From Candidatus Latescibacterota bacterium (GTDB taxonomy: Bacteria; Latescibacterota; CBDEFO01): a stretch of 64,000 nucleotides of DNA. The notes under the pieces are model-generated. The model was not told where the DNA came from, searched no databases, and was given only the letters and a program-made list of their open reading frames with translations. The position numbers and the translations under genes are program-made. The DNA is taken from contig OZ252149.1 of assembly GCA_965248755.1 (NCBI GenBank), forward strand, positions 480,001 through 544,000, in the 5' to 3' direction. Each line of letters starts with the position of its first letter. Positions within the stretch are counted from its first letter, which is position 1. Positions 5,438 to 14,953 of the stretch are shown here, piece by piece.

Positions 5438-6670
5438 CTATTTCTCCCTCCTGACTTCCACCTTCAAAACCCTCCTGTCGGTCGCATTCACAACCCTGAA
5501 CCATACGCCCTCTTGTGACATAGTCTCCCCTACCTTGGGTATCCTTCCGAAAAACGAGATGAGCATTCCGCCTATCGTCTCGTAATCCTCCTTTTCAATC
5601 TTCAAGCCAAGTTTTTCGTTCAATTCATCTATCTCCATCCTACCTTCTACGACTACTGCATCCCTTGTGAGCTCAATTCCGCTTGATCTATCGTATTCAT
5701 CCTCTATTTCTCCCACGACTTCCTCTACAATATCTTCCAAGGTTACTATCCCGGAGATTCCCCCATACTCATCCACGACCGTACCCATATGCTTCCCGTT
5801 GGCCCTTAGATCGGCCAGAACTTCCTCGGCGCTTTTCGTCTCAGGTACGATATAGACGTCGTCCATGACCTCTTGAACAGGGGCATTTTCGTCCAACCCT
5901 ATTAGATCGACGGCGTGAACCATGCCCACCACATTATCCACTCTGTCTCTATAGACCGGAATCCTCGAATGTCCCGTCTGGATCATCAATTTTGCAGTAT
6001 GACCAACATTTTCAGCCACAGACACAGCCACAATATCTATCAGGGGGACCATAATCTCCCTAGTTCTGAGCTCCCCAAAGTGGAATATATGGTGGATCAT
6101 TCTTCTTTCATCTCTGTGCAGAGCTCCGTGCCTTTCACCCTCCCTTACGAGTATCTGAATCTCATCTCTGGTGACAAAAGGGCTTTTATTTTTGACATCG
6201 ACGCCAACTATCTTGGCAATAAGATTTGAAATAGAAGTAACAATCGCCACAATGGGGAGCATGGCAAAATACGACACCTTCAGAGGAAAGATTGTTACGA
6301 GGACCAACCTGTCGGCATACTGCCTTGCCAGGGACATCGGCACTATCTCGCCGAAGATAAGGATCAGAGGCCACATAATCGCTGCAGAGACTATAGCCAC
6401 AAGGTCGTTGCTCACCCATTCGACCGCCAGGCTCGCAGCGACTGCAGACCCTGCGACAATAGGCAAGTTCACTCCCACCATCGTAGCTGCCAAGAATTTC
6501 TGTGGCTCATCCAAAAAATCCACGGCAACCTTTGCCAGCCTGTTACCGCTTTCGGACAGATGGCGCAATTTTAGCCTGTTGCAGGAGAGCATAACCATCT
6601 CAACTCCGCTAAAAAACGCCTGTGTTACCAGGCACATAAGGATGATGATTATTCCTGTAAGTTCACTCAA
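5438..6670 (-). CDS. CorB/CNNM (HlyC/CorC) Mg2+/Co2+ transporter, DUF21-CBS-CorC
   Basis: [32 protein letters not shown] motifs. TTG 6670 follows an AAGGAG RBS. Confidence 0.88.
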
Positions 6671-6726
6671 AGTATCCGGCGCTCTCCTTTTTAACAATTA
6701 AGTGGCCAGGCGTGCCCCCGCCGCTA

Positions 6727-6810
6727 AGATTGCTTGGGTCTTAGGTCCCCTCGCAATGATCGAAGAGAAAGCCAAACGATGTCATCGCGAGCAACAGCAA
6801 AGCTATTTCT
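6727..6810. repeat. Palindromic repeat family A (AGATTGCTTCG..CCTCGCAATGAC / GTCATTGCGAG..CGAAGCAATCT), degenerate copy
   Basis: Arms AGATTGCTT..CCTCGCAATGAT and GTCATCGCGAG..AAGCTATTTCT match the copies at 13133 and 16299. Confidence 0.7.
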
Positions 6811-6848
6811 TAAACAGGACATCACCTCCCTGCGTACTTTCCACTTGT

Positions 6849-8123
6849 TTAATCTGTGTCCTCTGAAGAAAGTTCCCCCTGATCTTTTAGCTTTCTGACT
6901 TCAACCAAATGTATCCTGTTTGCCTCTGCCTCTGTAACCACAAACTCCATATTATCGTGCACTAACTTATACCCTACATCAGGTATCTTTCCCAGGCGAC
7001 CAATTATAAATCCTCCAATTGTCTTATGAGCCTCGTCCTGAAGATTCGTACCAAATACCTCGTTGAAGGCGTCAAGCTCTATTTGGCCGGCTACCCTCAC
7101 GGTCATCGAATCAATCCTTTCAAACAAAGTATCCGTTTCCTCTTTATCAGCTACCTTGCCGAATATTTCCTCCAAAAGGTCCTCCATAGTGACTAAACCC
7201 GACACAGAGCCGTACTCATCCACCGCCAGAGCGATGTGGATTCTATCCCGCCTGAATTCCCTCAGAATCTCTCCTGCCCGCTTTTGCTCAGGCACGAACG
7301 ACACAGAGCGCAGTCTCCTGCTCATCTCAAAGTCATCTTTGCCCTTAGCTCCTAAAAGGTCCTTAGCGTAGAGGATCCCGACCACATTGTCAAAATCACC
7401 CTTGTAGACCGGTATCCTGGAATATCTTTTCTCCCTTATCGAACTTATAACTTCATCTATAGGGGAGTCTATATCCAGCGTGAACATCTGAGTCTTGGGA
7501 CTCATCACGTCTGCGGCCCTTTTTTTTCCCAGGTCTATCACCCGTTGCATCATCTCTTTTTCCTTTAGATCGAGCACACCTTCCTGCCCTCCCGCCTCAA
7601 GAGCAACCTTCAATTCCTCCTCCGTAATTCCCGATTCAGGGGGAGGTTCCCCCATGCTTACCAGCCTGATTATAAGGTCCACAATCGCTCTTACCAATCT
7701 CCTCACCGGAAATATGACTTTCGACACCGTGCTTATGATGGGCGCCACTGTAAAAGAAATTCGCTCGGCGTTATGAATTGCTATTGTCTTGGGGGCGATC
7801 TCTCCGAACACTAATATCAAAAAGCCCATAACGACGATAGATATTTCCAGCCCCATCTCGCCTAAAACCCGCTCGGCTATACGCTCGGCTAGAGTTGAAG
7901 AATAGATATTCACAAACATGTTCACCGACAAGATAGAGATCAAGACTCTCCGTGGGTTCTTTAAAAGTTCCACTATGAGCTTACCCTTCTTATCCTCCTC
8001 CTGTTCAAACCTTTCTAATCTCACCTGGCTTAAAGAGAAAAGCGCGCACTCAGAACCTGAGAAGAACGCTGATAAAAAAAGCAGGATTACCAAGATCAAT
8101 AATTGAAGCCATAGATATTCCAT
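6849..8123 (-). CDS. CorB/CNNM (HlyC/CorC) transporter, second paralog
   Basis: FFSGSE, FGEIAPK, YSRIPV, VDEYG, TMEDLLEE motifs. Confidence 0.9.
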   Translation of the reverse strand: MEYLWLQLLILVILLFLSAFFSGSECALFSLSQVRLERFEQEEDKKGKLIVELLKNPRRVLISILSVNMFVNIYSSTLAERIAERVLGEMGLEISIVVMGFLILVFGEIAPKTIAIHNAERISFTVAPIISTVSKVIFPVRRLVRAIVDLIIRLVSMGEPPPESGITEEELKVALEAGGQEGVLDLKEKEMMQRVIDLGKKRAADVMSPKTQMFTLDIDSPIDEVISSIREKRYSRIPVYKGDFDNVVGILYAKDLLGAKGKDDFEMSRRLRSVSFVPEQKRAGEILREFRRDRIHIALAVDEYGSVSGLVTMEDLLEEIFGKVADKEETDTLFERIDSMTVRVAGQIELDAFNEVFGTNLQDEAHKTIGGFIIGRLGKIPDVGYKLVHDNMEFVVTEAEANRIHLVEVRKLKDQGELSSEDTD

Positions 8124-8223
8124 TTTCGGAACCTATGATAAAAAAAGGCGTTAAAAGGCCGACGGACTCTGTCAAAGATTATATCGACTCTTCAAACACC
8201 TCCACCAACAAGCGTTCAGCCCT

Positions 8224-9339
8224 TTAGAAAAATACGTGAAGTTCAAAGGTTAACCGATCTTCACTTTCCCGGGGTCTCTGAGGGATACTATCATTGATGC
8301 GGTAAAACACTCTCAACTGAAGAAACTGGGTTATGAAGGGTTCCAAGCCAATGGTTACCCTTTCGCTTTCGTCCTCATCAACTTCGGGATCTGCATCGAA
8401 AAATCGGTCCCAGAAATCGTAAGTCACCTTGAGGTTGATACCCTTTGTAATCAAAAAGTCAAGTTCCCCCAAAAGGACAAGCTCCTTTCCAAAACGGTCG
8501 TCTCTGTCACTATCTATAAAGTCTAACTCGCTTAAAAGAGTCAATCTTCCGAAATTTGCTCCCGCAAAGTGTCCATATACCTTCCTGGTCGTTCCGGGGA
8601 GCTTGTTCCTTGAAAACGATCCCCCGAACCTGAAATGTCTGAAAACAACAGAACCTATCAAGGACACCTGCTTACTCCTGTTGTCGTCAGATAATCCCCG
8701 TCCGGACCCGTTGCTTAGAGCTACGCTAAAAGAAAAAGGTCCGGGCTCTATGCCGCCTTCTATACCGAAATCTTGTTTTTTGTAGTTAAATCCTGTCTTT
8801 ATCCTTATAAATGCGTCATCGTCTAAAAGCCTTAATCCGAACGGGAGCAGCATCCTTCCCGCCTTGAAATAGCCCCTCAAGGGCAGATTGTATAAAATCC
8901 CGTATGCCTCCCTGTTGCTGGCACCCGACGGACCGAAGTTCTCATCCACATACAAAGTCAGAAAATCCTTTATAAGTTTCATCTCCACATAAGCGTTTGC
9001 GGTTCCGATCTCTATGCTGTTATCGTTTTCTCTATCCACTCCGAATATCGTCTGGTTATTAACCCTCAAGTCCGCGCCCAAGGATATATAATCGTTTAGC
9101 CTGTTGTCAAAAAGGGCCTCATTAGAGCGTTTGACAAATCTGTGGGGCAGACGAATGTAGCTGTAAATCAGGCCGAAATCGGTCCTTTTTCCTCCTCCCG
9201 TCGGATTCACATGGCACTGGCTGCACTTGTATCCCGTCCTTGCTGCCAGATAAGGCTCAGCGCGGCAGAACTTTGGAAGAACCCCGGCGCCCAAAACTAG
9301 TATCCAGATCAGACACACAGTCTTTAAGTTTTTTTTCAC
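8224..9339 (-). CDS. Predicted outer-membrane beta-barrel protein with an N-terminal c-type heme motif
   Basis: Signal peptide, CSQCH motif, alternating amphipathic beta-strands, C-terminal Phe (LHVFF). GTG start after GGAGGG. Confidence 0.75.
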   Translation of the reverse strand: MKKNLKTVCLIWILVLGAGVLPKFCRAEPYLAARTGYKCSQCHVNPTGGGKRTDFGLIYSYIRLPHRFVKRSNEALFDNRLNDYISLGADLRVNNQTIFGVDRENDNSIEIGTANAYVEMKLIKDFLTLYVDENFGPSGASNREAYGILYNLPLRGYFKAGRMLLPFGLRLLDDDAFIRIKTGFNYKKQDFGIEGGIEPGPFSFSVALSNGSGRGLSDDNRSKQVSLIGSVVFRHFRFGGSFSRNKLPGTTRKVYGHFAGANFGRLTLLSELDFIDSDRDDRFGKELVLLGELDFLITKGINLKVTYDFWDRFFDADPEVDEDESERVTIGLEPFITQFLQLRVFYRINDSIPQRPRESEDRLTFELHVFF

Positions 9340-9366
9340 CTTCCCTCCTGTGACTCGTAGAAGGGT

Positions 9367-10473
9367 TCAATCATTCTTAGCTCCTCTTAATATCCACTCC
9401 TTTATCACATCTATTTGCTCCTGGGGCAGGGGTCGCTCACCGGAAAAGAAAGGCGGCATCTGAACTCCCACGATTCCGTTCCTGCCTTCCAACTTCCAGA
9501 TTATATAGCTGTTCTCAGGGTCGCCCGGTACGACTCTCAGGACTTCCGGTTTTCCCTCGCTATCGACCCCGACCAAATTCTCGAAGGACTTGCCCTTCAG
9601 CAAGGTGGGCCTTTGGCCTCCTGCGAAGTGGCAAAATATACATATTGCGCTAAATACATTTTCCTGAATAGCTGACAGCGTAGGCGGGAAGGGTCCGGGA
9701 ATCTGGACGCTGACGCTGATGTTGACCACCACACTCGATTCGTCGCTGTCATTGCTTATGATCTCTAACGCACCCGCACCTGATGTATCTTGGAGGAGTA
9801 ATGTGTTGATCACCAGCTTAAGGAGCATCGACCCACCTGGTGGTACTGTCTCATCAGATGACGCCAGGGGGGTGATCCAGGCGACAGTGGGGACGAGACT
9901 TATCAACACCAGATCGGCAGTTCCCCTGTTCTGGATAGTCACAGTAAGAGTGTCCGACTCTCCTTCCACTATTTCTGCGATAAGGTCAAGGGGGGCAACA
10001 TTTATCTCCGGCAGCGGCATCTCTGTGACGGTCAGTACGATTGCGATTGTCTCAGATGGACTCTCTGCGTCGTCGCTCATGATAGTCAGCGCACCCTCTG
10101 ATGAGCCGAGGGGAATGTCTGTCGCATCAATAATAATGAGGATCTCCATCGACTCGTCTTGGCCCAGCGCTTTGGAGGTCACACCCGGCGTGGCCCACGG
10201 CACATCCGAGCTGACACTCAAGACAGTCAGCGGAAACCCTCCCACGTTTGTGACCGTCAACGAGACTGTGTCGACCGTTTCCTGAGTCAGTGAAAGGCTG
10301 ACCTGTCCGGGTGCCACCTGGATCTGAGGCGGACCGAGAGGATTCCCCTGCGGATCCAAAGTGCTGCCGTCTCCGGAACAGGACAGAGCAGAAATAGCGA
10401 ACCACAACAATAGACAAAAAATCCAAACTACCCTATTTTCCGCCTTGATAGTCCCCTTCCTTCGTCTTCTCAT
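9367..10473 (-). CDS. Lipoprotein with two Ig-like repeats and a C-terminal monoheme cytochrome c domain
   Basis: Lipobox ALSC; repeats TVTNVGGFPLTV..VPW..GALTIMSDD and TIQNRGTADLVL..VAW..GALEIISND; CIFCH, VVPGDPENS, QMPP, IKEWI. Confidence 0.75.
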   Translation of the reverse strand: MRRRRKGTIKAENRVVWIFCLLLWFAISALSCSGDGSTLDPQGNPLGPPQIQVAPGQVSLSLTQETVDTVSLTVTNVGGFPLTVLSVSSDVPWATPGVTSKALGQDESMEILIIIDATDIPLGSSEGALTIMSDDAESPSETIAIVLTVTEMPLPEINVAPLDLIAEIVEGESDTLTVTIQNRGTADLVLISLVPTVAWITPLASSDETVPPGGSMLLKLVINTLLLQDTSGAGALEIISNDSDESSVVVNISVSVQIPGPFPPTLSAIQENVFSAICIFCHFAGGQRPTLLKGKSFENLVGVDSEGKPEVLRVVPGDPENSYIIWKLEGRNGIVGVQMPPFFSGERPLPQEQIDVIKEWILRGAKND

Positions 10474-11401
10474 TATCCTCCCAGAACACCCTGTAAAAGA
10501 ATCCCTTTTTCTCTGTAAGCGACTGAACGTAGTGAACCAAAGACCACTTCCTACTCACCTCTAAAGCGGTCTCCTCCTCATCAGACATAGTGTCCCTTTC
10601 CTGCCTTGTAATCAGACTCTTTATGTACTCCTTAACCCCTTCGATTTCATCATCAGAGTAATAACCCTCAAAGGTCACAAGGTCCTGATAGCTTTCTCTC
10701 GTAAAGAGAAAACTCCTGGCGTAGGAGGGCATGGGAGTTCCGCTCAAGCCCGTATTAAACACCCTGTAGATGTCCTTATTCGCCCGACCGCCTTTGTACT
10801 CTCCCTTTGTAAAATCGTAAGCCTCTATCGGATTTCCCCAGCTATCTTTGAGATTATCGGAAGAGGGTCCATCCCCTTTTCCCCTCTTGCCGTGGCATTT
10901 CCAGCACTGCATGAGCATGTATATCTTTTCACCCTGGGCTATCGTCTCCTTGGTGACCGGAATCTCCGCTGGTATATCTATCGGCGCTTTAGGTCTTCTC
11001 TTTTCAAACTTACTTGAAAAGGTCTTGATGTACTGAATTACAAACATCCGCTCGCCCTCCGAGAGAATATCTCCCCAGGCGGGCATGGAAGTACCCGGAA
11101 CTCCCCTGGATATAGTCCTGAATATATCCTCATCTGCAGGAAGAGATCCCGATGGCGTAGAGCGGAACTTGTAAGCCCCCTTGGTAAAGTCTCTCGGCTT
11201 GGGATCAAGATACTTCGCAGCGGGTCCACTTCCGTTCCCGCTCTGGCTATGACACGCTGCGCACGCCTTTTTGTATATCCTCTCTCCCCTGAGGGCTGAG
11301 ACGCTCCATTCTTTTCTTGATGCGCTGTCAGATGAAGACACTGTGCAAGGAACACAAAGCCACAAGACACTGACGGTCCAGAAAAGCAGAAGCCATCTCA
11401 T
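10433..11401 (-). CDS. Periplasmic diheme cytochrome c
   Basis: Signal peptide; CAACH with distal GTSMP; CWKCH with distal GTPMP; PKPRDFT motif. Confidence 0.85.
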   Translation of the reverse strand: MRWLLLFWTVSVLWLCVPCTVSSSDSASRKEWSVSALRGERIYKKACAACHSQSGNGSGPAAKYLDPKPRDFTKGAYKFRSTPSGSLPADEDIFRTISRGVPGTSMPAWGDILSEGERMFVIQYIKTFSSKFEKRRPKAPIDIPAEIPVTKETIAQGEKIYMLMQCWKCHGKRGKGDGPSSDNLKDSWGNPIEAYDFTKGEYKGGRANKDIYRVFNTGLSGTPMPSYARSFLFTRESYQDLVTFEGYYSDDEIEGVKEYIKSLITRQERDTMSDEEETALEVSRKWSLVHYVQSLTEKKGFFYRVFWEDNEKTKEGDYQGGK

Positions 11402-11498
11402 TTTTATCTTTCTTAATCATCCTTCACAAATAAAAAGCGACAGACACTGCAACCCAGCGCCTGAACGTATTTTCTTCTGTGCCCTCGATAACACAAGC

Positions 11499-11527
11499 AA
11501 TTTAATATATAAGATATAAAATGTCAA
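11499..11527 (-). promoter_or_regulatory. Sigma70-type promoter for the cytochrome operon
   Basis: TTGACA-17 nt-TAAATT on the minus strand. Confidence 0.55.
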
Positions 11528-11579
11528 GGAAGATTTGACGCACATATAGATAGCCCTAAGCATAAGCTTAAGTTTATAG

Positions 11580-11608
11580 TTGACAATCATCTTTTGCCGT
11601 TTTATCTT
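11580..11608 (+). promoter_or_regulatory. Sigma70-type promoter for amrB/amrA (divergent)
   Basis: TTGACA-17 nt-TATCTT. Confidence 0.6.
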
Positions 11609-11692
11609 TTCTCATGAGTAGAACTTTAGTCATAGGCACAGCAAATCGCAGATTAAACTATCTTATGCGATAACCCAAAGAAGGGGATAAGA

Positions 11693-12541
11693 ATAAAAGT
11701 ATCAAAAGATAAAATCAGGAGGCCTGCAGTTGCGGGTCAGTTCTACTCTGGCGACCCTGAGGTCCTAAAAAGAGAGGTTGTGGAACTTTTAGAGCACGCC
11801 GATGACGCCGATATCAAGGGACAAATCACAGCCCTTGTGTGTCCACACGCGGGATACCCCTACTCAGGCAGGATAGCCGCATCAGCCTACAAACAGATCC
11901 AGGGACAGGACATAGACACAGTCGTGGTCACGGCCCCAAGCCACAGGGATTTCTTCCGGGGGGCCTCCATCTACAACGGAGGATCCTACCAGACCCCATT
12001 GGGGACTATTCCTGTGGATGTGGAACTTGCTTGTGCCATGGTCCAGCAAGATCCTGACATATTCCGTCTCGGAGACGACGGGCACAAGGATGAACACTCC
12101 TTAGAAGTTCAACTTCCCTTTTTGCAGGAAACCCTAAAAAACTTCAAGATCATCCCCATAGTCCTTTGCGAGCTTTCTCTTGATCTTGTAAAACGCCTCG
12201 CCGACGTTGTTGCCTCCGCTATAAAGGGCAGGAAACTCCTCATCGTCGCAAGCTCTGACCTCTATCACGGTTACTCATATAAAGAGTGCTTACGATCCGA
12301 TTCTAATACCCTCTCCAAGATCGAAGAGTTCGACCCTGAGGGCTTTTTTGAAGGAATCCAGAAAGAGGCCTACCATGCCTGTGGGGCAGGACCTATAACC
12401 ACAGCCCTTTTAGCCGCCCGGAAGATAGGAGCTGACAAGGCCCAAATAATCGCAAGGACTAACTCCAACGACGTGACGGGTCAAAAGTTCGGGTACGTCG
12501 TTGGCTACGGAGCCTCCGTCATCTATAAGTCCGATCTGTAA
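11693..12541 (+). CDS. amrB: AmmeMemoRadiSam system protein B (MEMO1 family)
   Basis: IRRPAVAGQFY upstream of the track start, PHAGYPYSG, EHSLEVQLPFLQ, SSDLYH, CGAGP, VVGYG. Start inferred at ATA 11693. Confidence 0.9.
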   Translation: MKVSKDKIRRPAVAGQFYSGDPEVLKREVVELLEHADDADIKGQITALVCPHAGYPYSGRIAASAYKQIQGQDIDTVVVTAPSHRDFFRGASIYNGGSYQTPLGTIPVDVELACAMVQQDPDIFRLGDDGHKDEHSLEVQLPFLQETLKNFKIIPIVLCELSLDLVKRLADVVASAIKGRKLLIVASSDLYHGYSYKECLRSDSNTLSKIEEFDPEGFFEGIQKEAYHACGAGPITTALLAARKIGADKAQIIARTNSNDVTGQKFGYVVGYGASVIYKSDL

Positions 12542-13244: not shown

Positions 13245-14660
13245 TCAAAATTTATAATTTCCAGAGAAGAACAACCTCTTCGTCTCCTCGTCCCGGTCGA
13301 CTTCAGATCTTATCTGTCTGAAGACTGCGCGCGACCATGCAAAGTCCAACTGAAGCGACTGATCTATCAGGACTCCTGCTCCTAATGTGATAAAGTCCCT
13401 GTCGTCCCTTATATCGACAGGAAGCTCTCCGAGCACGGTCAAGGTCGGACCTATGAAAGATAGCGGATCTCTGTAGAATCCTCCCCGCAGTTTGACCTCG
13501 ATGGCCGGCAGTGAATATTCGGCTCCTATGTGGAATCTGGTGACTCCTTTGTACTGCTTATCGAAGTCAGCTTTTCCGTCCCCATCTATGTCCTCTACAA
13601 AGGAGATCTCTTCACGGAACTCATCCTGGAAGGTAAAGATAGGGTCCTCTTTGAACTCGGTCTCATCCCAGGATGCGAAGCTTACATCGGCGCTCAAAAG
13701 GAAATTGGAAAGAGACAGCGATCCTCCGAGTCCGAACTCGAAGGGGATGCGGATTTTGTACTCTCCCAAAAAAGGCGTAGGAGGCCTAAAATCTATTGTT
13801 AGGCTATCTGGGTCTTCCTCGAACCAAAGGGTATCCGCAAATTCACTCCTACCTTCCACCTTTATCTTATAGGTGACGGGACTGGAGACGGTAGCTCCGA
13901 GACGAATATGTTCTCCCCCTTTTATCAGCATCCCGAACTTGGCGTTGAATCCGCTGTATTCATCGGATCGGGATATTGTGTTAAAGAGACCGATTAAGTC
14001 TGGATTAGTGTCAGGGTCATTGGCTAATGATTTGGCAGAAAGATCGGCTCTTTGGGAAAATTCGTCGCCGCCGTCCCATATATTCAGACTTAATCCCAAA
14101 GAGACAGACGGCGAAATGTCCGTCGCGCCTGCTATGGAAAAGACCCCCAATCCTCCTTCATCTCTTTGCTGGACATCGTTCTCATATTCAAATATGGTGT
14201 CATCCACACCTTTATATCGGATCTTCGAATCGAAATCTTTGATCCTGTTATAGCCTATAGCGAAGACCAGGCTCCCCTGATATACGGGTACAGGATAAAC
14301 AAACCCCAAAGACCCGAGGGGCGTGTTGGAGATGTCAGCCGAACTTTTGGTCCCAAAGAAGCTCGTGTCCGTTTCGTGTCTGGTTTGGATGATAGCGCCA
14401 TATATTTCGGCTCTTTTTATCTGAGCCAATCCGGCGGGGTTCCAGTAGGTGGCGGAAAAGTCATCTGCGACTCCGATATAGGCTCCTCCCATCCCCATAG
14501 CCCTCGCCCCCACACCTGAGAAATTGTCTATAGACACCTCCTGACCCGACGCACTTCCTGAAGCTAAAAAGAATATAACCGCCCAGAGAGTTCTGATCCC
14601 GGACCCCCGATTTAATCGGCGCTTCACTCGGGGACAGGGTTGATCAATAGAACGATCCAT
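13245..14660 (-). CDS. OmpP1/FadL-like outer-membrane transport protein
   Basis: GARAMGMGGA, ADDFSATYWNPAGL hatch motif, C-terminal YKF. ATG 14660 follows AAGGA. Confidence 0.85.
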   Translation of the reverse strand: MDRSIDQPCPRVKRRLNRGSGIRTLWAVIFFLASGSASGQEVSIDNFSGVGARAMGMGGAYIGVADDFSATYWNPAGLAQIKRAEIYGAIIQTRHETDTSFFGTKSSADISNTPLGSLGFVYPVPVYQGSLVFAIGYNRIKDFDSKIRYKGVDDTIFEYENDVQQRDEGGLGVFSIAGATDISPSVSLGLSLNIWDGGDEFSQRADLSAKSLANDPDTNPDLIGLFNTISRSDEYSGFNAKFGMLIKGGEHIRLGATVSSPVTYKIKVEGRSEFADTLWFEEDPDSLTIDFRPPTPFLGEYKIRIPFEFGLGGSLSLSNFLLSADVSFASWDETEFKEDPIFTFQDEFREEISFVEDIDGDGKADFDKQYKGVTRFHIGAEYSLPAIEVKLRGGFYRDPLSFIGPTLTVLGELPVDIRDDRDFITLGAGVLIDQSLQLDFAWSRAVFRQIRSEVDRDEETKRLFFSGNYKF

Positions 14661-14953
14661 CTCCATTCCTTTCTATCCGTTGGTAGCTCAGACGACTTCG
14701 TGTGCTTATCACTTTCTTGCCACATCCTGCCTCCTGCAGGAGAGGGGTGGCAGCGATGCACGGAGTGCCCTCCCCCCCGATTGAATCTATTTGGGAGTCA
14801 GGGATCAATATGTTTGAAGGCGTCTGTTTGCCTTATGTTATGAACTAATCGAAGCTTTAAGTTAGACTAATCAGGCCTCGTTTGGTTTCCGAGCTTTTTT
14901 AAGTGCACAAAAAACAAGTCCCTGAAGTCAGCGCGCGATAGCAACGAGAAACT

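Follow-up and report, generated by a model that had tools for sequence, protein, structure and literature searches.

A 64,000-nucleotide window of the genome of a Candidatus Latescibacterota bacterium (GenBank assembly GCA_965248755.1, contig OZ252149.1, positions 480,001 to 544,000) contains three co-oriented genes for predicted c-type cytochromes, one of which is fused to a predicted β-barrel. All three lie on the minus strand, in the order gene 1, gene 2, gene 3 (coordinates are those of the window). Gene 1 (10433..11401) encodes a predicted secreted dihaem class I cytochrome c of 322 amino acids, gene 2 (9367..10473) a predicted lipoprotein of 368 amino acids with two immunoglobulin (Ig)-like repeats and a monohaem domain, and gene 3 (8224..9339), which has a GTG start, a predicted 16-strand OprP-like barrel of 371 amino acids with an N-terminal monohaem domain. 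Genes 1 and 2 overlap by 41 nt (10433-10473), genes 2 and 3 are separated by 27 nt (9340-9366), and together they hold four CxxCH motifs, two in gene 1 (CAACH at residue 47 and CWKCH at 166), one in gene 2 (CIFCH at 278) and one in gene 3 (CSQCH at 39). The closest relative of gene 3, found in a sister genome (L001), is 94% identical and lies in the identical three-gene order. An original prediction had described this arrangement, which the sequence confirmed, and had proposed that the three proteins form a low-haem wire across the cell envelope.

The barrel that had been proposed for gene 3 was reproduced by AlphaFold2, which returned a 16-strand model with a mean predicted local distance difference test score (pLDDT) of 90.7 and a predicted template modelling score (pTM) of 0.88. 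With the mature start placed at EPY from the alignment, helices occupy mature residues 2-8, 12-15 and 27-36 ahead of the 16 strands, a loop helix at 150-155 folds inward, and CSQCH (39-43 of the full-length protein) sits in the N-terminal helical segment. A wide structural search ranked OprP (2o4v) first (Z 26.2, root-mean-square deviation (rmsd) 2.8 over 293 residues), and Foldseek returned 16-strand porins, with OprP and OprO giving the top query template modelling (TM) scores of 0.70-0.71. When the homologue P0036 was used as query in the Atlas, the clusters retrieved included unnamed ones (0.99) and one of Porin_O_P type (0.97). Sequence searches were less productive: a PDB search with the barrel profile gave 0 matches at E 10, none of 72,556 plasmids matched the barrel in tblastn, and NCBIfam holds no model for gene 3.

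Conservation of the haem site, which the original prediction had expected, was confirmed in the family alignment. The C, C and H of CxxCH, the preceding Gly and the following Asn/Gly are invariant in 121 aligned rows, and the GGG after the motif is invariant or nearly so. The pattern G..C..CH.N..G.G.R is present in 233 of 240 family sequences, a set composed of the 121 alignment rows and 119 locus proteins that is partly redundant. The family signature reads EPY[LIF]A.R.G.KC..CH.N.TGGG.R, and gene 3 itself has AEPYLAARTG before CSQCH and VNPTGGGKR after it. The barrel is conserved throughout the family as well (mean column identity 41%) and contains an L3-like motif and, in the 121-row alignment, many conserved charged residues in the pore. 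Since C, C and H are invariant in both the 121 barrel rows and 45 rows of the lipoprotein described below, the haem motifs are beyond chance.

These features recall Cyc2, which has been described as combining a signal peptide and a single CxxCH with a barrel of 16 strands, for which OprO/OprP served as templates (10.1101/228056). Gene 3 likewise has a predicted signal peptide, a single N-terminal CxxCH and a fused predicted OprP/OprO-like 16-strand barrel, and its length of 371 amino acids passes the FeGenie Cyc2 filter of at least 365. As in Cyc2 of A. ferrooxidans, Cyc2PV-1 of M. ferrooxydans, Cyc2TAG1 of G. bivora and Cyt572 of Leptospirillum, CxxCH lies in a short helical domain, at an equal distance from the start of the mature protein (A-x-P ... 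G-x-x-C-x-x-C-H), and [TN]-x-F-G follows the haem site. However, Cyc2 is defined by AXPXFAR[Q/K][T/Y] five residues before CxxCH and PXL four residues after it (10.1101/228056), and neither motif occurs in any of the 240 family sequences. Moreover, Cyc2 barrels are reported to be poorly conserved, whereas the gene 3 barrel is well conserved, and the gene 3 family differs further in having a dedicated haem lipoprotein partner and hosts that are not known iron oxidisers. For profile comparisons we used a surrogate Cyc2 set of 25 complete motif-bearing proteins from 31 Pseudomonadota loci, with Cyt572-type proteins left out. Alignment of the gene 3 family with hhalign gave probabilities of 69% for all 25 and 77%, 21%, 57% and 30% for four subgroups; four of these five comparisons covered only the haem-motif region (17-30 columns) in identical register, and the fifth covered an 87-column stretch of the barrel. 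The best hmmsearch match of the family to the 25 proteins had an E of 4e-4. Distant haem-porins in other Latescibacterota (L047-L050) carry PQ[FY]A...CxxCH.N..GGG.R, and this pattern, P-Q-[FY]-A before CxxCH and GGG-x-R after it, falls between those of the family and Cyc2. Together, the relation of the gene 3 family to Cyc2 reads as remote kinship, or as convergence on one architecture, and not as membership.

A further difference concerns the C-terminus. His368 (mature His341; 8236..8238, minus strand) lies in the last barrel strand and, from its conservation in the family, is a candidate sixth haem ligand. A His at position -4 from the C-terminus is found in 120 of the 121 family rows and is kept in the distant relatives L045 and L047-L050, whereas all 25 motif-defined Cyc2 proteins are without a His in the last eight residues. 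Judging from strand alternation, we infer that His368 points into the lumen close to the N-terminal haem domain, at the periplasmic end of the barrel, and it is likely to be the sixth ligand. Models of Cyc2 have a single axial His (PMC13741234), and electron paramagnetic resonance of Cyc2 indicates two haem ligands (PMC13692758); the candidate His in the last strand would suggest an answer to the question of the second axial ligand of Cyc2, and the adjacent lipoprotein gene would suggest one to that of its periplasmic acceptor.

Gene 2 begins with a hydrophobic signal and a lipobox with Cys32, followed by a 14-residue motif, two Ig-like repeats and the monohaem domain. The motif, C-x-G-D-G-x-x-L-[DN]-x-x-G-x-P, starts at the lipidated Cys and spans residues 32-45 (10339..10380, minus strand). 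Its core pattern was found in 44 of 72 domain matches, and C1, G3 and G5 are invariant in 45 lipoprotein rows, which had been preselected for a Cys-Gly start. Because such conservation is unusual for a mere tether, we regard the motif as a candidate docking or sorting signal. The two tandem acidic repeats (residues 49-256; 9706..10329, minus strand) were recognised by repeat alignment, Pfam and Foldseek, and they are real, as the original prediction had it: their local alignment score was 116, while the highest score among 1000 shuffles was 70, and Pfam PF22544 matched with an E of 1.7e-7. They resemble PapD and choice-of-anchor-D folds (2qsv, PapD-type chaperone folds) and are very acidic, with 28 Asp or Glu against 3 Lys or Arg. 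In the model of gene 2 the repeats have low-to-moderate confidence and the haem domain a pLDDT of 76-98, and Foldseek with the whole model gave Ig-type matches only, with low TM-scores.

That the stalk is the key part of the system was considered and rejected. Among 130 loci only the present genome and its sister match the two-Ig stalk, and a protein search in the range of 185-590 amino acids returned four matches, of which two cover the stalk. Most relatives of gene 2 are 140-200 amino acids long with a short linker, and those of Marinimicrobia contain a distinct insert of about 110 amino acids. Because the stalk is confined to the genus and most relatives use a short flexible linker, it cannot be central to the mechanism, and at the level of sequence it is a genus-specific spacer rather than part of the core.

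The monohaem domain of gene 2 (residues 260-368; 9370..9696, minus strand) contains CIFCH (278-282) and Met339 as the likely distal ligand. Both Cys, the His and the distal Met are invariant in the 45 lipoprotein rows. The spacing of the haem site varies: among 81 domains we found CX4CH in 43, CX2CH in 25, CX3CH in two and CX5CH in one, and the remaining 10 were read as CXCH. Because the spacing ranges from CXCH to CX5CH, with CX4CH the commonest, CxxCH scans miss most of the lipoprotein partners. The solved structures that best matched the profile of this domain were FoxE (5mab, E 6.6e-7) and the alpha subunit of hydrazine synthase (E 3.4e-5). The gene 2 domain scored 16.7 bits (E 0.012) with PSCyt1 (PF07635), for which the gathering threshold is 22 bits, and the sister-genome protein had clusters with PSCyt1 among its Atlas neighbours at 0.89-0.91.

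Gene 1 has a single hydrophobic stretch, at its N-terminus, followed by CAACH (47-51) and CWKCH (166-170), and PF13442 and PF00034 each matched two stretches of the protein. Both distal Met residues of the original prediction were borne out: the C, C and H of the haem sites together with Met106 and Met224 do not vary across the 17 aligned homologues, and the two Met residues are likely distal ligands. A solved homologue is chain B of PDB 6H5L (6h5l_B, E 4.6e-66 across both haem domains), entered as 'conserved hypothetical cytochrome protein'. We take this entry to be the Kuenenia Kustc0458/0457 complex, with Kustc0457 as chain B. Kustc0457 has been described as the dihaem electron-transfer subunit of a nitrite-reducing hydroxylamine oxidoreductase (HAO) complex, in an article that does not give the PDB code (PMC8042395). 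Unlike chain B, gene 1 lies without an octahaem HAO partner nearby and has 50 extra residues inserted in its second domain and, at the C-terminus, a short amphipathic tail that is conserved.

To define the conserved unit, we compared gene neighbourhoods at 119 full-match loci, which form 67 clusters at 70% identity; the metagenome loci among them are the 80 best of 413 that were confirmed, and the sample therefore leans towards close relatives. The lipoprotein domain was found within 1.5 kb of the barrel in 40 of the 56 cluster representatives with at least 900 bp of upstream sequence. Among 36 wide-flank clusters, the lipoprotein was present in 22, the dihaem gene in 12 and both in 10. The proposed co-occurrence of all three genes is seen in other phyla, but an obligatory three-gene unit was rejected on these counts. 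The conserved unit is the barrel with a PSCyt1/FoxE-like haem lipoprotein, and the dihaem cytochrome is an accessory. The lipoprotein domain was also considered as a marker of the barrel and rejected, as it is far commoner than the barrel.

The clearest respiratory neighbours occur in Marinimicrobia. At L002 and L004 a gene for another dihaem lipoprotein and COX1/COX2 genes come directly after the trio, which at L111 lies between two coxB genes. A bd-oxidase-I-like gene is found near the barrel at L019, and a multi-cupredoxin gene at L005. A dihaem cytochrome gene and, in some genomes, an oxidase near the barrel are also a point of likeness to Cyc2, in whose cyc2-cyc1-cox rus operon dihaem cytochrome and oxidase genes lie near cyc2 (PMC10654088). 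In Latescibacterota, a full-length barrel was detected in 24 of 168 genomes, namely this one, its sister and 22 of family f14. In 19 f14 regions the barrel stands alone beside ychF/valS-like genes, with a partner in none of them. In a quick IQ-TREE tree of 70 rows with SH-aLRT support only, the nine of these stand-alone barrels that were included and two metagenome rows form a single branch (support 100), and the loci that pair barrel and lipoprotein are spread across the tree. Among the matches listed, an unlinked lipoprotein that starts at profile position 1 was found in 20 of the 22 barrel-bearing f14 genomes, and its motif was read as intact in nine of those genomes. Barrel-negative relatives (among L182-L206) often retain lipoprotein paralogues whose motif is altered, and a genome may hold as many as 4-5 copies of the domain.

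The family is large and widespread. A single word-index search retrieved 4,219 candidates, of which 1,823 at E <= 0.001 set a lower bound, so that the family has at least 1,823 proteins in multiple phyla. Of 120 proteins listed, two carried a Pfam label (Porin_4), and those with a name were 'hypothetical'. Barrel hosts include Marinimicrobia, Planctomycetota, Steroidobacteraceae, Lambdaproteobacteria, Desulfobacterota, Entotheonella and Dehalococcoidia; the contig behind the last of these is 3.7 kb long and may be misbinned. We predict that gene 3 belongs to a large, multi-phylum, Pfam-less family that is a divergent sister of Cyc2. Given L047-L050 and a further distant Latescibacterota haem-porin (L045, 1495-3380), which has two N-terminal CxxCH motifs and a monohaem lipoprotein gene upstream, the haem-porin superfamily, as predicted from these members, is wider than this family. 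Other variants include barrel homologues of about 584 amino acids at L018 (43-1797) and L019 (5248-6999), of which the L018 protein has a cysteine-rich insert of about 200 residues that separates its haem domain from strand 1. At L015 (5353-9336) and L017 (5371-10532), barrels that carry an additional CxxCH close to strand 2 are followed by a lipoprotein with 10 CxxCH motifs; that of L015, the only one scanned, is MtrC/MtrF-like with an E of 1e-55, and an NrfD-family gene lies near it. A two-haem porin wired to an outer decahaem cytochrome without MtrA or MtrB is possible in these two.

The host genome, a single 4.54-Mb contig that is 98% complete, encodes CcmA/B/C/E/F/H (CcmA being the ABC ATPase) and COX1/2/3 of an A-type haem-copper oxidase. 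A split cytochrome b occurs in the oxidase cluster together with an 8-CxxCH protein. There are few other c-type cytochromes, and no open reading frame of the genome contained the canonical Cyc2 motif. In the oxidase cluster (host 1165611-1179464) the split cytochrome b, an 888-residue 8-CxxCH membrane protein, a dihaem lipoprotein and COX2/1/3 are accompanied by two carboxypeptidase-regulatory-like proteins, and in Marinimicrobia a comparable oxidase cluster comes after the haem-porin module. A separate cluster (host 1566617-1569523) holds a di-haem oxidoreductase (DHOR) lipoprotein, a small Rieske protein and an unassigned secreted protein of 391 residues.

The module matched no characterised complex, as the original prediction had suspected: Mtr-type and FoxEYZ traits are absent, in addition to the Cyc2 motifs. 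It is not an Mtr, Pio, Pcc, PCC3 or PCC4 system (PMC5566968, PMC10734462). Like MtrCAB, MtoAB/PioAB, Geobacter Pcc and PCC3/PCC4, the module clusters a barrel, a lipoprotein cytochrome and a periplasmic cytochrome, and the decahaem lipoproteins at L015 and L017 add to this likeness. However, those systems have about 26 strands, against 16 in gene 3, whose haem site is moreover fused to the barrel, and cytochromes with 8-10 or more haems, against four haems in the whole three-gene module. The structural match of gene 3 to MtrB (6r2q_B) was poor (Z 11.7, rmsd 9.4). Of the three families named for comparison in the original prediction, MtrB matched poorly, Cyc2 profiles weakly and PSCyt1 below threshold. 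FoxE of Rhodobacter ferrooxidans SW2 (PDB 5MAB) has been described as extracting electrons from Fe(II) (PMC10654088 section 9), and each of its two halves gives a weak alignment with the haem domain of gene 2. As in FoxE and PSCyt1, His/Met ligation is likely in gene 2. In contrast to them, gene 2 is lipid-anchored with its own N-terminal motif and has variable CX1-5CH spacing among its relatives. FoxE is dihaem, against the single haem of gene 2, and no foxY or foxZ is present, the flanks being CNNM, Memo and AMMECR1 genes.

Taken together, conduction of electrons across the outer membrane in some form is probable, as had been proposed, but this would not be a new kind of conduit, given the Cyc2 architecture and the shared register of the haem domain. 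The three-gene module is likely to work as Cyc2 does with its periplasmic cytochromes, as a variant of the Cyc2 idea. The idea of a wire across the whole envelope had to be abandoned. Tunnelling-distance limits mean that four haems cannot span a periplasm of many nm as a continuous wire. Because a static wire of four haems is impossible, a mobile or tethered carrier is needed, and the lipoprotein tether and the soluble dihaem protein could supply this movement. The reading that we favour, and to which we give about an even chance, is a Cyc2-style relay that would pass electrons from a small extracellular reductant into the respiratory chain, with the lipoprotein facing the periplasm. The haem domain would close the barrel at its periplasmic end, where His368 in the last strand would serve as the sixth ligand, and a dissolved reductant, Fe2+ or another small donor, would enter the pore; Fe(II) is the best-known donor for a Cyc2-like architecture. 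In some lineages, an outer decahaem partner might hand electrons to the barrel instead. The lipoprotein would dock on the barrel through its N-terminal motif and accept the electron at its His/Met haem, which would be held on a short tether in most species and on the two-Ig spacer in this genus, and the dihaem cytochrome would then ferry electrons to the oxidase.

Several observations weigh against such a relay. The operon has CNNM and Memo/AMMECR1 genes as neighbours, and the oxidase cluster is about 680 kb away. Most barrel loci, as predicted from their flanks, have unrelated neighbours: when 65 flanking proteins (of 110 called at 26 loci) were scanned with NCBIfam at E 1e-25, the only respiratory ones were the two CoxB proteins of L111. 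The weak similarity to Cyc2 could come in part from the common CxxCH and generic porin strands, and a capacity to oxidise iron cannot be taken for granted even among genuine Cyc2 homologues (10.1101/228056 section 13). The matches to FoxE and hydrazine synthase are weak too, and the haem domain is used in many contexts; it was matched in 105 of 168 genomes of the phylum, compared with 24 for the full barrel. In addition, motif-like lipoproteins occur in 13 genomes without a detected barrel: of 14 barrel-negative genomes, the motif is intact or nearly so in two, which are 84-85% complete, altered in 11 and absent from one.

Electrons could also flow outward, with the dihaem cytochrome and lipoprotein feeding the barrel haem, which would reduce a soluble external acceptor such as chelated Fe(III), humic quinones or another oxidant, or an outer multihaem partner. 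Bis-His haems tend to have a lower potential than His/Met haems. If His368 is a ligand, the barrel haem would accordingly tend to a low potential, and Cyc2, of which one has been measured at -130 mV, shows that low-potential haems are possible (PMC13692758). The MtrC/MtrF-like decahaem beside the barrel at L015, there together with the NrfD-family gene, and the decahaem at L017 would also suit this direction. However, with His/Met partners on the inside and a barrel haem of lower potential, inward transfer would be downhill, the clearest respiratory neighbours are oxygen reductase genes, and the host is poor in multihaem cytochromes, which leaves outward flow improbable.

We give no better chance to the lipoprotein being exposed at the surface, which was one of the two placements offered by the original prediction and in which the motif would thread through the barrel or dock on its outer face and the acidic stalk would lift the FoxE-like haem towards minerals or other cells, from which the barrel haem would take the electron inward. 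The choice-of-anchor-D/PapD type and strong acidity of the repeats are consistent with this, as are the CHRD, Big or Fn3-type domains in family members or neighbours at L006, L009 and L051. By the rule of E. coli, the absence of Asp at position +2 of a lipoprotein is compatible with sorting to the outer membrane, and gene 2 has no Asp there. Against this, the stalk is confined to the genus, with a spacer of about 8 nm the haem would need to return to the pore for transfer, and the barrel haem would lie at the periplasmic end behind the L3-like loop, beyond direct tunnelling.

A sensory role outside energy conservation, in which the barrel-lipoprotein pair senses redox state or a small ligand or gates the channel, seems to us equally doubtful. 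It would suit the scarcity of respiratory neighbours at most loci, the f14 barrel that stands alone among housekeeping genes, the many conserved charged residues in the pore, and four related loci (L069, L075, L083 and L085) where a multi-PAS protein or kinase follows the barrel. These four lie on one branch of the tree, however, so that synteny explains them, no transmembrane signalling partner is kept across the family, and the recurrent additions are electron carriers (dihaem cytochrome, cupredoxin and decahaem). Finally, an ordinary OprP-like solute porin near cytochromes, with the barrel CxxCH as a structural disulfide or metal site, would account for the OprP-like fold, the L3 motif and the weak sequence links to Cyc2, but is very improbable given that the CxxCH with its His is invariant, on a helix and in Cyc2 register, that cytochrome pairing is steady, that a second CxxCH occurs at L015 and L017, and that the host has Ccm.

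Extending the inward relay to the family as a whole gives a more tentative picture, which we think possible but for which the odds are not in its favour. The gene 3 family might be a second lineage of monohaem cytochrome-porins, hitherto unnoticed and missed by searches for Cyc2 motifs, with a bis-His haem held between the N-terminal plug and the last strand and a dedicated FoxE-like lipoprotein docked by its N-terminal peptide. Different phyla might wire this gate to cytochrome c oxidase, a bd-like oxidase, cupredoxins or MtrC-like decahaems, and oxidation of Fe(II) or another donor might then occur in Marinimicrobia, Latescibacterota, Entotheonella, SAR324-type and other uncultured marine and sediment bacteria. 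Surveys of iron oxidation and extracellular electron transfer rest on Cyc2 motifs or hidden Markov models together with multihaem counts. Because both Cyc2 motifs are absent and no Pfam or NCBIfam model exists, motif-based curation would discard the gene 3 family, and if it is an outer-membrane electron gate, abundant uncultured groups would own a hidden route to external electron donors. A description of the family was not found in a literature search with limited coverage of subscription journals and Cyc2 supplements, nor in the available sections of PMC8114936, PMC10654088 and PMC13488337; the supplements of Cyc2 papers may hold members of the family.

Upstream of gene 1, at a distance of about 100 nt, lies a sigma-70-like promoter candidate, TTGACA-17-TAAATT (11499..11527, minus strand; 10/12 matches). 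This site, which had been assigned to the operon as its own promoter, exists as described, and both boxes are identical in the sister genome, in a region that is 94% identical overall. However, such sites barely exceed chance frequency (nine in 7 kb, against 6.4 +/- 2.7 expected), and a promoter of the three-gene operon at 11527-11499 is for that reason only plausible. A terminator-like hairpin in the leader (11463-11441) was considered as a conserved attenuator and rejected, as the sister genome breaks two of its nine pairs, and an Rfam scan of 7900-12000 gave 0 matches. Downstream of gene 3, a co-oriented CNNM/CorC gene follows after 100 bp, and no terminator-like site was found in between. 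That gene is the first of two tandem co-oriented CNNM/CBS/CorC-type genes (5438-8123), an order common to the sister genome whose conservation was not seen elsewhere. On the other side, a FadL/Toluene_X-type outer-membrane barrel is encoded at 13245-14666, with matches to the PorV and BamG models below threshold. Between the operon and the Memo/AMMECR1 genes, promoter-like sites are arranged back to back (11499-11608), the minus-strand site facing the operon and the plus-strand site the Memo/AMMECR1 genes, with an inverted repeat TGTCAA-N7-TTGAC.

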